From NCBI GenBank assembly GCA_964016885.1, contig OZ024743.1, positions 240,746,001-240,810,000 on the forward strand: a stretch of DNA of 64,000 bases, written 5' to 3'. Source of the stretch: Eledone cirrhosa. Its lineage: Eukaryota. Made by a program: the position numbers and the translations under genes. Below the pieces are notes generated by a model. It was not told the DNA's origin. It saw only the letters and a list, made by a program, of their open reading frames with translations, and made no database searches. This document shows, one piece after another, positions 3,069-63,255 of the stretch (positions within the stretch are counted from its first letter, which is position 1; each line of letters begins with the position of its first letter).

Positions 3069-3104
3069 TTTCCTGATGAAGGAATTATGTCCGATACGTT
3101 GAAA
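3069..3104 (+). ncRNA. Degenerate minimal type I hammerhead ribozyme
   Basis: TTTC-CTGATGA-A-GGA(ATTATG)TCC-GATACGTT-GAAA. The GAAA core is mutated to GATA. Downstream GCGTGAAATTAATAA is shared with the 18860 element. Confidence 0.55.
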
Positions 3105-3294
3105 CATATATTTATTTATTTATATACATTACCAAGCGTGAAATTAATAAGACTGGGTTTTTGCATCTCCGTGTTTGTCTTATTCATTCTCTTTATATAT
3201 ATGTATGCATATGTATGTATGTATGTATGTATGTATGTATGTATGTATGTATGTATGTATGTATGTATGTATGTATGTATGTATGTATGTATGT

Positions 3295-3497
3295 AGTTAC
3301 CGATGATGTTGATATTTTCTTCTTTTCGGGTTATAGCTGCTGTCGCTCAGAGAGTGGGATTGGCTCGGTGCACAGTCTTTCCTCACTTTAAAAAATATCT
3401 TCATGTACAGGCATTGCACGATAGAATTAATTAATAATTATTAATAATGGTATATCGTGCAATGGCCATACTCGATAACGAGGGGGTAGCCATCATC
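3295..3497. repeat. Dispersed interspersed repeat (second copy ~35352-35556; short related end ~10964-11002)
   Basis: Near-identical AGTTACCGATGATGTTGAT...GCAATGGCCATACT...GCCATCAT blocks, flanked by (TATG)n. Confidence 0.75.
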
Positions 3498-5261
3498 ATG
3501 TATGTATGTTTGTATCTCTCTCTCTCACTCTCTCTCTCTGTATATATATATATATATATATATATATATATATATATATATATATATATATATATATATA
3601 TATATACATATATATATATATATATATATATATATAGAGAGAGAGAGAGAGAGAGTTGTAAAATCCCGACTGCGGCACCAAGCGGTTTCCGCTTGTGTGT
3701 TCAGCAAGCGTTTGAAAAAGCTCTCTGAACAAATATCTCTATACCCAATCCGCATCTCCCCATGTATCCAGTACTTTCATGATTAGTGGTCTCCACGATC
3801 TCGGCACCACAGACTCTCTCTCTCTCTCTCTCTCTCTCTCTCTCTCTCTCTCTCTCTCTCTCTCTCTCTCTCTATATATATATATATATATATATATATA
3901 TATATATATATATGTGTGTGTGTGTGTGTATTATGAATGTATGCTTGTGCTCGATTTATTAAGAAATTACAAAACCATATACATTATTGATATTCAGCAT
4001 CTTACATTGAATACGTCTATAATATCTAATCGAATCTATACATGTCCAGGTGCTTTTACCAATTTCTTAAATATTCCGAATCCAGTCGTTATAGTTATAC
4101 ATTGCTACCCATTACTTTTATTTCCTCTTTTCTTGGACTGTCTCACAATTCTGTCTCAATAGATATTTCTACATATAAGTCAGCTTGAAAATTAAGCATT
4201 TTTTCAATTTGTTAAGGTAACAGCTCTTATTTAGGGGACAGCATATATATTAATTTCCGTTCCAATTTTAATGATAATACATAAATCTTCAAGCTTTGAA
4301 ACATATTCCGATACTAGTGAATTTGGAACAGCAAACAAGACGAAAATATCGATTTGACACGTAAAACCAGGCTGAAATTAAAGAGAAATAGTGACTCCTA
4401 CAAAACAATTCCAGTACATTCCTCTCCTTAAAATATACGTTTTTTAGTAGCACTATGGAACTCAGCTTGCATTAAGACAACCGACGTTGAAAACCAAGCA
4501 AAGATATAGACTAATCGGTAACATTTACTTTAAATGAACTATAGTTGCCTCTCTCAAAATAGGATCTTTTTCAGTTGTGTAACTCAGGTAATAAGTGTTA
4601 AGCAACGAAACAATATTGTCCCGGTGCCATCTTGGATTAAAGCATGTCTCTCATTATAAGATATCTGACCGTCAGATTGGTTGAACACTTGTGAAACTTA
4701 AAATAACGGCAAAAGACAGCAGTCTAATAAGTGTTATTACAATTTCAATTGAGTACTTTTTCTCATGTTCCTTATACACAACACTCACACACACAGTGTG
4801 TGTGTGTGTGTGTGTGTGTGTGTGTGTGTGTGTGTGTGTGTGTGTGTGTGTGTGTGTGTGTGTGTGAGTGTGTGTATGCGTGTATATACATACTTATACA
4901 GACATAAGTACACAAACACACGCACGCAAACACGCACACACATACGCGCGTACATGCGCATATATGTTCAGACTAATACACACATATTTGTATGCGTGTA
5001 TGTATGAATATGTTAAATAATACATTAGGAGGTTAAGCTCATGCTAACCCTCTATCAGCAAAATTTATTGACTCGACAATTATACTGAATCCCAATAGAT
5101 TTTAACTCAAATTGATTTCATGATGATGTTGATGGTGTTATCGCAGCTATTATTGTTGTCATTAATGTCGTCGTTAATCTTGTCGCGACTACTATTCTTG
5201 TGTTTATTGTTGATATTGTTGTTAACGCTGTTCCTGTTCTTCTTAATATAAAGTGTTTTAG

Positions 5262-5667
5262 GGCTGTAAATTGGCAGAATCAGTAGAGCGTCGGACGCCC
5301 TGCTTCGCGGCAATGAATTACGGCCTTTCACACTCTGGGATCAAATTCTGTCGAGGTTAGCTTTACCTTTCATCTTTATGGGGTAGATAAAATAAAGTCA
5401 CGTAGTGGGGTCTATTTAATCGACTTTCCCTCCCTCCAAACTGCTGGACTTATACCTATATCAGAAACATTATTATAAAGCGTGATTGGCAGAATCGGTA
5501 GAGAGTCGGACACCATGGTTTGAAGCATAGAGTTACGTCCTTTTATGATCTGAGTTCAAATACCGCCGAGATTAACTTTGCCTTTCATCCTACGGGATCG
5601 ATAACATAAAGTACCAGTAATGTACTGGGTAATTGCTGGCCTTGTGCCTAAAATACAAACAATTATT
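5262..5667 (+). mobile_element. Two tandem tRNA-derived SINEs with Nin-type central domain
   Basis: A-box-like TGGCAGAATCGGTAGAG, B-box-like GAGTTCAAATACC, CCTTTCATCC..GGGTCGATAA..AAGTACCAGT core, ATT-repeat tail. Confidence 0.75.
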
Positions 5668-62370: not shown

Positions 62371-62433
62371 TATATATATATATATATATATATATATATA
62401 TATGTGTTTTTTAAGCTTCATATCATGTCTCCC

Positions 62434-62504
62434 TATTTTATCTGATGAGAACGCAGATATCATCCCATGATGATATTTGTTTTTGAAATGCGCATAATAA
62501 AATA
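62434..62504 (+). ncRNA. Type I hammerhead ribozyme (family of 48846) in a ~140 bp (TA)n-flanked insert
   Basis: TATTTTAT-CTGATGA-GAACGCAGATATCATC..GATGATATTTGTTTTT-GAAA-TGCGCA-TA-ATAAAATA. Confidence 0.82.
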
Positions 62505-62595
62505 CCTGGAACTCTTTTAACCATCTTTTGATCTTATATTATATATATATATATATATATATATATATATATATATATATATATATAGCCGTCGT

Positions 62596-63255
62596 ATACT
62601 TGCTTGACCTCCTGCCCTGCTGTAGTTGGCACTATCAACGCACGAGTGGGTTTCCTCCACTCCCTCTCCCTCTTTCTTCAACTGGCAAGTTCAGCTACCC
62701 CTTCCTTCCACAAATTGCCATGATAGAATTATGTGTCTCAACAACAAACTTTTGACCAATCCTTGTGACAATCACTTTTACCATATATGGAATTACCCCC
62801 TGAGAAGCTCGGCTATTCATATACCAGGATAAAAATTTTCATTTAGCCCAGAATTAGCCGTCGAAATGGCTTGAGCTCAGCCGTCGGGGTCCTACTCGTT
62901 CCTATATATAAATATATATATATATATATATATATATATATATATAGGAACGAGTAGGACCCCGACGGCTGAGCTCAAGCCATTTCGACGGCTAATTCTG
63001 GACTAAATGAAAATGTTTATCCTGGTATATGAATAGGCGAGCTTCTCAGGGGGTAATTCCATATATGGTAAAAGTGATTGTCACAAGGAATGGTCAAAAG
63101 TTTGTTGTTGAGACACATAATTCTATCATGGCAATTTGTGGGAGGAAGGGGTAGCTGAACTTGCCAGTAGAAGAAAGAGGGAGAGGGAGTGGAGGAAACC
63201 CAGTCGTGCGTTGATAGTGCCAACTACAGCAGGGCAGGAGGTCAAGCAAGTATAC
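62596..63255. repeat. Tail-to-tail inverted pair (~310 bp arms) around (TA)n, each arm with a variant HHR
   Basis: Arms reverse complementary with several substitutions; mirrored ORFs 62626+ and 63017-. Confidence 0.9.
62795..62890 (+). ncRNA. Variant type I hammerhead (core CUGA-GA lacking N7); mirror copy ~62958-63053 on minus strand
   Basis: ACCCC-CTGAGA-AGCTCGGCTATTC...GAATTAGCCGTC-GAAA-TGGCT(TGAGCTC)AGCCG-TC-GGGGT. Confidence 0.72.

Follow-up and report, generated by a model that had tools for sequence, protein, structure and literature searches.

We analysed a 64,000-nucleotide stretch of the Eledone cirrhosa genome (contig OZ024743.1, positions 240,746,001 to 240,810,000; hereafter "the window") in which type I hammerhead ribozyme motifs recur in inserts beside (TA)n microsatellites. 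The locus holds an intact Penelope-like element (PLE) that we call PLE1, a series of short inserts from further PLE families, three non-coding tandem elements with one hammerhead per unit, and several small hammerhead-bearing inserts whose parent element was not traced; the inserts together make up about 27% of the window. We read these inserts, with a probability of about 0.8, as hammerhead-bearing repeats of Hydra- and Neptune-type PLEs inserted into (TA)n, accompanied by three non-coding elements that are likely co-mobilised.

Hammerhead motifs in the window and across the genome

An initial annotation had proposed 15 to 20 type I hammerheads in the window, and all 20 sites that it listed are present at most about 10 nt from its coordinates (the low coordinate for minus-strand sites). 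The type I core, with the boxes CUGANGA, GAAA and UH around three helices, is complete in 17 of the 20. Deviant cores are found at site 3073, with GAUA in place of GAAA, and at sites 62800 and 63049, which read CUGAGAA. Helices are weak or damaged in 3 of the 17 (18862 with a helix I of two pairs, 19649 with mutated helices II and III, and 28421 in helix II). Degenerate copies at 48701 and 38955, both on the minus strand, extend the list.

A first strict descriptor recovered 5 sites because it permitted no bulge or mismatch. A structure scan at a score of at least 14 found 8 motifs in the window against a mean of 0.06 to 0.08 and a maximum of 1 in block-wise dinucleotide shuffles (100 at each of three block sizes), and a looser scan at a score of at least 11 found 12 motifs against a mean of 0.88 and a maximum of 3 in 25 shuffles; permitting a longer helix II gained sites 50576, 55378 and 62035. 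The shuffled-sequence comparison that the initial annotation had proposed thus comes out in its favor. With 65% AT and abundant repeats, the window is the kind of low-complexity DNA in which motifs could arise by chance, but this explanation is refuted by the shuffles and by a reversed-pattern control in the whole genome (19 matches against 90,228), and we give it virtually no credence: The hammerhead motifs are not chance. An Rfam scan of the window returned no hammerhead family among the matches listed (150 of 530), which are microRNA look-alikes of fold-backs, and a general repeat search was dominated by microsatellites.

For genomic context we sampled 94 evenly spaced 10-kb stretches (940 kb) of the 3.0-Gb assembly, so that all density figures carry sampling error. 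The same scan found 10 motifs in the 64-kb window and 78 in the sample, i.e., one motif per 12 kb, placing the window at about twice the average; the first 74 stretches held 61 motifs against 0 to 3 in six shuffles, and (TA)4 runs are as frequent in the window (2.84 per kb) as in the sample (2.78 per kb). The window is ordinary for this genome and no special cluster. The exact pattern of one superfamily is matched 90,228 times in the genome; the sample contained 38 such matches, which extrapolates to 121,000 and overestimates by about a third. We estimate a total of roughly 150,000 to 250,000 hammerhead motifs in 3 Gb.

Adjacency to (TA)n is likewise genome-wide. A (TA)4 run lies at most 200 nt after the cleavage site in 68 of 78 sampled hammerheads compared with 2,882 of 16,185 control positions, and at most 15 nt from the fixed 3' end in 100 of 165 family loci (not all independent, as some are two arms of one insertion or duplicates) compared with 334 of 16,132 control positions (2.1%). 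Neighboring hammerheads of the same family in the 940 kb form 16 head-to-head pairs, 3 tandem pairs and 1 tail-to-tail pair; 41 of 78 are unpaired.

PLE1 and the families behind the inserts

The hammerheads fall into 14 families, so that the diversity noted in the initial annotation stands while its count of roughly ten does not: Six families belong to coding PLEs (PLE1 and five families of short inserts), three are non-coding tandem elements, and five have no traced parent. PLE1 comprises the following features:

52916..62367, plus strand: PLE1, full-length PLE insertion, Hydra-clade by its motifs, with its end at (TA)n and a unit of about 6.65 kb
52916-53108: inverted arm of 193 bp
53109-55713: 5' pseudo-long terminal repeat (pLTR)
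55372..55518, plus strand: type I hammerhead of the 5' pLTR, predicted cleavage after 55512
55866..58307, plus strand: open reading frame (ORF) of 813 amino acids from ATG, with reverse transcriptase (RT) and C-terminal GIY-YIG-type endonuclease, read from motifs
62029..62175, plus strand: hammerhead of identical type in the 3' pLTR, predicted cleavage after 62169, some 198 nt short of the 3' end

The single ORF carries RVRWR at position 35, SDKT at 114, YRDD at 346, CNCRNKTNC at 673, YIG at 707, CRLC at 771 and CNH at 799, and thus has a CxCx5C linker, CxxC and CxH but neither GxKF nor CCHH. Together with insertion at (TA)n and a hammerhead near the 3' end of the pLTR, these features identify PLE1 as a Hydra-clade PLE by the motifs of Craig et al. 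2021 (PMC8557442). An assignment to Naiad was rejected, being contradicted by the C-terminal endonuclease and by motifs that are those of Hydra. A Pfam search of the ORF gave no match, and of 118 relatives from a protein search 117 had no name and 1 an unrelated name. The two 2.6-kb pLTRs are 99.7% identical over 2,607 bp, and the 55 genomic matches scored, the best of 118,051 candidates, are all full-length with open frames and 99% to 100% amino acid identity; judged from these sequences, PLE1 has been active very recently. The 5'-pLTR hammerhead combines a helix I of 9 to 10 bp, a 116-nt insert in helix II and a palindromic CGAUCG helix III, and RNAfold recovered helices I and II of the 3'-pLTR copy (z = -6.74; none of 200 shuffles as stable).

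The 3' untranslated region (UTR) of PLE1 is 4.06 kb long and about one third simple repeat. From 58307 to 62367, the element's own 3' UTR and pLTR form about 4 kb of TA/TG-rich simple repeat; since PLE1 carries this repeat, each insertion would seed new microsatellite DNA and new targets. Between RT and endonuclease, 57300-57600 encodes an Asn/Thr/Lys-rich insert (cited also for locus L138), as is known from some rotifer Penelope elements (PMC3846280).

The five short families that we trace to coding PLEs are represented as follows:

15187..15245, plus strand: GCC family, ultra-short 3' end without the 5' half of the hammerhead
16914..17438, unstranded: GAAC family, perfect head-to-head pair of PLE 3' ends; hammerheads at 17068-17114 (minus) and 17234-17280 (plus), helix III not palindromic
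17571..18981, plus strand: 18862 family, 5'-truncated Neptune-type PLE end; minimal hammerhead at 18856-18895 with weak helix I
28210..28610, unstranded: GUAC family, head-to-head pair of Neptune-type PLE 3' ends; hammerheads at 28324-28364 (minus) and 28415-28455 (plus, helix II damaged)
38807..39100, unstranded: GUAC family, second, decayed insertion; hammerhead remnant at 38921-38961 (minus)
48520..48957, unstranded: UGCGCA family, head-to-head pair of Hydra-type PLE 3' ends with a tail on the minus arm; hammerhead at 48846-48912 (plus) and degenerate mirror at 48641-48707 (minus)
62404..62534, plus strand: UGCGCA family, short 3' end; hammerhead at 62436-62502
62594..62902, plus strand: GCC family, 3' end of a Hydra-type PLE; hammerhead at 62794-62891 with a 4-5-bp hairpin helix III
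62947..64000, minus strand: GCC-family PLE, 3' part of a degraded copy of about 4 kb that continues past the window (locus L139); hammerhead at 62958-63055

GCC-like stumps also lie at 26972-27147 and 48245-48385. Genomic searches with six window inserts gave 43 to 65 matches each (190 for the 485-bp unit described below), with about 40 scored candidates per search and best matches at 95% to 99% identity. In longer copies all five short families are collinear with the 3' ends of coding PLEs: UGCGCA copies enter Hydra-type RT and endonuclease coding sequence (L136, L138); GUAC copies (L132-L135) carry an ORF with RT and GIY-YIG, for which Pfam reports RVT_1 (E 1e-6) and GIY-YIG (E 2e-6) at L135; a 790-aa Hydra-type ORF lies upstream of the GCC end in L142; sampled GAAC copies encode a GIY-YIG C-terminus upstream (L284); and the 18862 insert retains a zinc-finger linker remnant at 17570-17710, with the motif read directly and a weak blastx match (E 0.03). 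The GUAC parent is Neptune-type by its GxKF, DKG, CxxC zinc-finger linker and GIY-YIG, a class within which Neptune and Nematis were not split by tree. None of the five is an independent non-coding tandem unit of the retrozyme kind; because they run upstream into PLE coding sequence, they are truncated ends and not independent mini-elements.

The three non-coding elements present a different picture:

27316..28145, plus strand: 485-bp tandem element, 1.7 units; hammerheads at 27496-27578 and 27981-28063, palindrome CUGAUCAG
45858..46477, plus strand: tandem element of about 555 bp; inverted tail arm 45858-45998, direct arm with hammerhead at 46324-46407, palindrome CUAAUUAG
50475..50709, minus strand: 3' end of a 2,077-bp tandem unit; hammerhead at 50521-50582, UGAUCA palindrome

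All three are non-coding, dispersed and tandemly repeated, and each unit bears a type I hammerhead, as in retrozymes. The 485-bp unit has at least 190 matches, found in the best 39 of 1,999 candidates, which are 98% to 99% identical and form head-to-tail arrays; such arrays reach more than ten units and share a fixed 3' end at unit position 349. At locus L226 the 2,077-bp unit occurs in 2.1 tandem units with no ORF of at least 150 amino acids. The predicted circular monomers of the 485- and 555-bp units are strongly self-paired (z = -6.6 and -7.7 against 40 shuffles), and the 5' ends of these two units are scattered (19 and 33 ends, respectively). The three elements are likely young, retrozyme-like passengers, and by analogy with other PLE systems they would very probably be mobilised in trans by a further PLE. 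An interior piece of the 2,077-bp unit (82% identity) also lies at 46612-46974 on the plus strand, and the unit's interior at L226 contains a segment of about 150 nt twice, about 296 nt apart.

The families without a traced parent are the following:

3067..3106, plus strand: degenerate minimal hammerhead with GAUA for GAAA (3073)
11521..11763, plus strand: short insert related to GAAC (11535), not traced to an ORF; hammerhead at 11529-11574
19533..19765, minus strand: decayed copy of an older minimal-hammerhead family (19649); motif at 19616-19655
28710..28850, unstranded: small fold-back insert (28772); hammerhead at 28766-28814
45472..45775, unstranded: UAUAUA family (45576), short inverted arm and direct arm; hammerhead at 45570-45631

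In two or three loci, sister subfamilies of UAUAUA follow remnants of a Hydra-type endonuclease, the 28772 hammerhead has a 3-bp helix III with a 2-nt loop like published Hydra hammerheads, and no further copy of the 3067..3106 hammerhead was found among the sampled loci.

Several results count against a PLE origin of every insert. A parent PLE was not traced for these five families; blastx of the non-coding units against 124 PLE-type proteins revealed no coding remnant; and no helper emerged from nucleotide comparison of the three units with five coding-element ends, the sole likeness being one 20-nt opposite-strand match, in a genome that holds more PLE families than this comparison sampled. 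The initial annotation had cast the intact element of the window as a potential helper, but neither PLE1 nor any of the four other coding-element ends is similar to any of the three units. Its wider proposal, PLE mobilisation with (TA)n targeting, is supported by five families that reach PLE coding sequence and by 3' ends at (TA)n. Where it had offered mini-elements or 5' truncations, truncation holds for five families and non-coding elements for three; the link of each family to an autonomous PLE, suggested as a check, could be made for the five short families but not for the three non-coding and five other ones; and the location in small inserts is right except that 55378 and 62035 sit in the 2.6-kb PLE1 repeats and 63049 ends a degraded PLE of about 4 kb.

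Other repeats share the window. A 235-bp head-to-head inverted repeat at 16272-16793 adjoins (TA)n, has a distant relative at L171 and is possibly a PLE-type end, though no hammerhead was found in it; small fold-back or repeated inserts without recognisable hammerhead also lie beside (TA)n at 49014-49141, 27165-27226 and 28647-28709. At 7229-10376 (plus strand) a degraded long interspersed nuclear element, presumably RTE-like, has Exo_endo_phos endonuclease and RT frames interrupted by stops. An RT fragment (RVT_1 match) followed by a CCHC-like motif occupies 32266-33597 and 33974-34354 on the minus strand, a combination that we take to be typical of non-LTR elements with a restriction-like endonuclease. 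A tandem array at 47587-48054 consists of 13 copies of a 36-bp unit (98% matches) and is open in two frames, and an inverted pair of about 370 bp (23567-23937 and 25277-25652; 94% to 100% alike) encloses a 1.3-kb microsatellite-rich middle.

Ribozyme architecture, insert ends and proposed replication

Stem covariation, another check proposed beforehand, was assessed with 34 representatives picked on the core boxes and a self-complementary helix III, ignoring helices I and II. Pairing of helices I and II with their own partners (0.76 and 0.74) exceeds that with partners from other families (0.47 and 0.44), and none of 2,000 permutations was as high as observed, a result that is not a strict probability given that the representatives are mutually related. 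Conversely, in 37 matches picked on helices I and II alone the segment between GAAA and UH is self-complementary in 32 (21 by Watson-Crick pairs, 11 with G-U), compared with 0 of 14 matches in 20 shuffles. These segments form predicted homoduplexes of -2 to -14 kcal/mol and no hairpin within one molecule. The fourth position of helix II is a C·C mismatch in 11 of 34 representatives, possibly a tertiary contact.

A helix III that is a palindrome without a loop is predicted to need two hammerheads in order to form. Cutting to unit length, and possibly circularisation, would then be confined to tandem transcripts longer than one unit, and single stumps would remain uncut. The 485-, 555- and 2,077-bp elements would draw their head-to-tail arrays from such dimer cleavage and circularisation. 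By analogy, a route through circular intermediates, in which tandem transcripts are cut only as dimers, strikes us as rather probable for these units, despite the poor cutting of dimeric PLE hammerheads in vitro (PMC4209133) and the 8 of 9 frog retrozyme dimers that stayed uncut (bioRxiv 10.64898/2026.07.22.740005). The idea that the palindrome brings together two RNAs, so that cut ends yield head-to-head insertions, was set aside because the GAAC family yields perfect pairs without a palindrome and Naiads do so without hammerheads.

Whether cleavage matters for spread is raised by one subfamily. The GCC superfamily has a U3-A8 pair with a variable N7 in 3,776 exact genomic matches and C3·A8 in 1,375, including both window copies (62800 and 63049), in which the 3-8 core base pair is thus absent. 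This pair belongs to the active hammerhead core (PMC3884650, PMC3088659), of which U3-A8 is a known natural variant (PMC4209133, PMC3088659); the C3·A8 core would presumably impair cleavage, by analogy, and we found no paper that measured its activity. Yet the best 30 GCC copies all carry CUGAGAA, are 97% to 98% alike and include one behind the open 790-aa ORF. Hammerheads might accordingly be kept mainly as pairing or RT-recognition structures that are seldom cut, with cleavage dispensable for spread, a view that also draws on the lack of 5' ends at the cleavage site and on Naiad PLEs that spread without canonical hammerheads (PMC8557442). We consider it improbable, as both catalytic boxes, a free N7 and UH are kept across many unrelated stems, compensation to U3-A8 shows selection on the 3-8 pair, and the tandem arrays are consistent with processing to unit length.

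In every family the 3' end is fixed, 17 to 200 nt past the predicted cleavage site, and most remaining loci end at a second family-specific site 50 to 150 nt further on. Both 3' junctions of the 485-bp unit are also seen as loose ends in contigs from four runs (of unspecified kind, used for junctions only); no RNA data set was among those listed as containing this element. In the GCC family the tail is the sequence leading into the ORF start, which indicates templates that are more than unit length or circular. The 5' ends cluster at hot spots: relative to the cleavage site, UGCGCA peaks at -126/-125 (38 of 63 arms within 11 nt; 26 of 39 loci), GUAC at -73 (28/48 arms), UAUAUA at -118/-116 (28/44 arms) and GCC near -41 (52/118). 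A TATA box lies at -31 (GUAC) and -30 (UAUAUA) from the hot spot, with backgrounds of 1.6% and 3.9%. The hot-spot sequences resemble what we take to be initiators, with a presumed YY1-like word in those of the GAAC and 11535 families. Most hot-spot junctions differ from one another (23/37, 23/23, 19/22 and 21/24), as would be expected if every insertion formed its own. A further GAAC 5' peak at -263 was an artefact of a duplication in the reference and disappeared with another reference. In Drosophila virilis, Penelope transcription starts 46 nt before a 75-nt intron (PMC2377424) whose end meets helix I, which puts the start within the pLTR, some 120 nt upstream of the hammerhead (PMC2377424, PMC4209133).

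These observations can be joined into a replication scheme. The PLE endonuclease would nick (TA)n, and the RT would prime on the RNA at a fixed AT-rich site 17 to 200 nt after the hammerhead; a second fixed site 50 to 150 nt further on would give the tail, mostly on the inverted arm. Transcription would begin within the pLTR, tens of nt upstream of the hammerhead. If the RT then primed on the transcript's 5' pLTR copy, it would yield run-off complementary DNAs (cDNAs) of 60 to 300 bp with a defined 5' end; on the 3' pLTR copy it would yield long, variably truncated copies. Target-primed reverse transcription, the transcription start, dimer cleavage, circles and trans-mobilisation are all modeled here on PLE biology. 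The hot spots are likely transcription starts in the two TATA families, as far as their sequences tell, and we lean toward the short inserts being run-off cDNAs from the 5' pLTR. An extended version, in which the run-off cDNAs come from the 5' terminal repeat of uncut transcripts and end exactly at the start, (TA)n at the landing site supplies a substitute TATA box, some inserts thereby renew themselves in the manner of short interspersed nuclear elements (SINEs) and cleavage is optional for spread, as the C3·A8 subfamily would show, seems improbable.

A number of points weigh against the run-off scheme. Part of the GCC peak stems from alignments that break off in diverged subfamilies; most hot-spot arms come from loci chosen by a query that excluded shorter copies, and fewer unselected arms sit at the peak (UGCGCA 10/23, GUAC 3/9, UAUAUA 2/5); peaks are weak for GAAC (8/29) and the 2,077-bp unit (6/37); and no TATA box precedes the UGCGCA or GCC hot spot (2 of 4 tested). 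Nor are 5' ends enriched at the cleavage site (485-bp unit: 1/19 within 1 nt), and the genomic copies thus bear no trace of in vivo cleavage. At the UGCGCA hot spot the sequence is the palindrome CATATG, where fold-back priming could explain the ends, and the GCC hot spot lies in hammerhead loop II; both would fit hot spots that are sites of RT stalling or fold-back and inserts that are random 5' truncations with a structural bias, as would the inverted orientation of half or more of the junctions and the self-priming at palindromes proposed for rotifer Penelope (PMC3846280). This alternative, which alters the sub-mechanism alone and not the identity of the elements, we hold to be possible but doubtful, since TATA boxes at -31/-30 with initiator-like sequence occur in two unrelated families, the GUAC and UAUAUA hot spots are not palindromes, and known Penelope promoters occupy this position.

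Another proposal, the main reading of the initial annotation, is that all short inserts are independent, self-propagating non-autonomous mini-elements with fixed ends of their own, like SINEs or miniature inverted-repeat transposable elements. Sharp 5' hot spots and fixed 3' ends do give fixed-size inserts, short copies are much more numerous than long ones, three families are genuinely non-coding, and 8 of 37 UGCGCA junctions share one 25-nt sequence. Set against this are the collinearity of five families with coding-PLE 3' ends, hot-spot junctions that are mostly distinct as expected if each were made anew, and stumps that start at the hot spot without an upstream TATA box, and we regard the proposal as quite improbable.

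Relation to known elements and significance

The initial annotation implied more novelty than is warranted: pLTR hammerheads, opposite-strand pairs, Hydra PLEs in (TA)n and retrozymes are all published. In the Hydra clade nearly all families lie in (TA)n with hammerheads and show inverted arms and tails, and non-autonomous Chlamys elements have been described (PMC8557442). The elements here share with that clade the RWK-like, DKT, CxCx5C and CxxC/CxH motifs without CCHH, the (TA)n targets, a hammerhead near the 3' end, a nearly loop-less helix III of 3 to 4 bp, and pLTR, inverted 5' arm and tail. Published Hydra elements, in contrast, are mostly shorter than 3 kb with a short helix II and tails of 30 to 40 nt, whereas PLE1 has a 6.65-kb unit, a 4-kb microsatellite-rich 3' UTR and a 116-nt helix II, and tails here measure 50 to 150 nt. 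Arkhipova et al. 2013 (PMC3846280) describe Neptune-type PLEs and pLTRs that are solo or inverted, which match ours in GxKF, DKG, the CxxC linker and GIY-YIG, in head-to-head pLTR pairs and tails, and in TATA and initiator-like pLTR motifs; that study favors self-priming at palindromes, whereas in two families here the 5' ends fall 30 nt downstream of a TATA box.

Cervera and De la Peña 2014 (PMC4209133) described pLTR hammerheads and their dimer dependence, proposed a circular model, and reported opposite-strand hammerhead pairs 100 to 700 bp apart from truncated PLEs. Like those minimal hammerheads (also Perreault et al. 2011, PMC3088659, Fig. S8 legend, for the palindromic helix III of repeat-type hammerheads), ours are type I with a palindromic helix III and U3-A8, and occur as scattered single motifs and opposite-strand pairs; dimer dependence was found for the published ones and is predicted here. 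They differ in that helix III is usually a loop-less palindrome of 6 to 8 nt with many family-specific sequences, helix II spans 26 to 116 nt, a C3·A8 subfamily has spread, and the estimated copy number is roughly 150,000 to 250,000 rather than thousands. Non-LTR retrozymes and their PLE origin were treated by Cervera and De la Peña 2020 (PMC7229834) and by Li, Clavereau and Pollet 2026 (bioRxiv 10.64898/2026.07.22.740005). Our three non-coding elements resemble them as head-to-tail units with one type I hammerhead each, dispersed as monomers to multimers, with low GC, highly self-paired predicted circles and co-occurring PLEs, but are larger in part (485, about 555 and 2,077 bp against about 170 to 400 nt in the 2020 paper and 51 to 972 bp in the 2026 preprint) and, known here as genomic sequence, are inserted in the complete PLE manner, with a 3' end fixed in (TA)n, an inverted arm at the 5' side and a tail. 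Outside subscription papers, we found none on start-site-bounded stumps, (TA)n-targeted tailed retrozymes or this density.

The system as such is therefore known, and what this genome adds is ribozymes of variant architecture, a trio of young passengers that resemble retrozymes, and two oddities open to testing. If it holds the estimated 150,000 to 250,000 motifs, it would rank with the genomes richest in hammerheads on record, compared with 126,247 hammerheads in the axolotl (PMC7229834), and retroelements account for much of the DNA flanked by (TA)n that would pass as "simple repeat". The function of PLE hammerheads has been called unclear (PMC8557442). The E. cirrhosa genome offers at least 55 near-identical intact copies of a Hydra element, young non-coding passengers and a natural core-broken subfamily, a combination that makes dimer cleavage, circle formation and the dispensability of cleavage directly testable. 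If the hot spots are transcription starts, genomic stumps map PLE promoters without RNA data, and if the extended version holds, the genome would show for each PLE family where its promoter and priming sites lie and how far it depends on the ribozyme.

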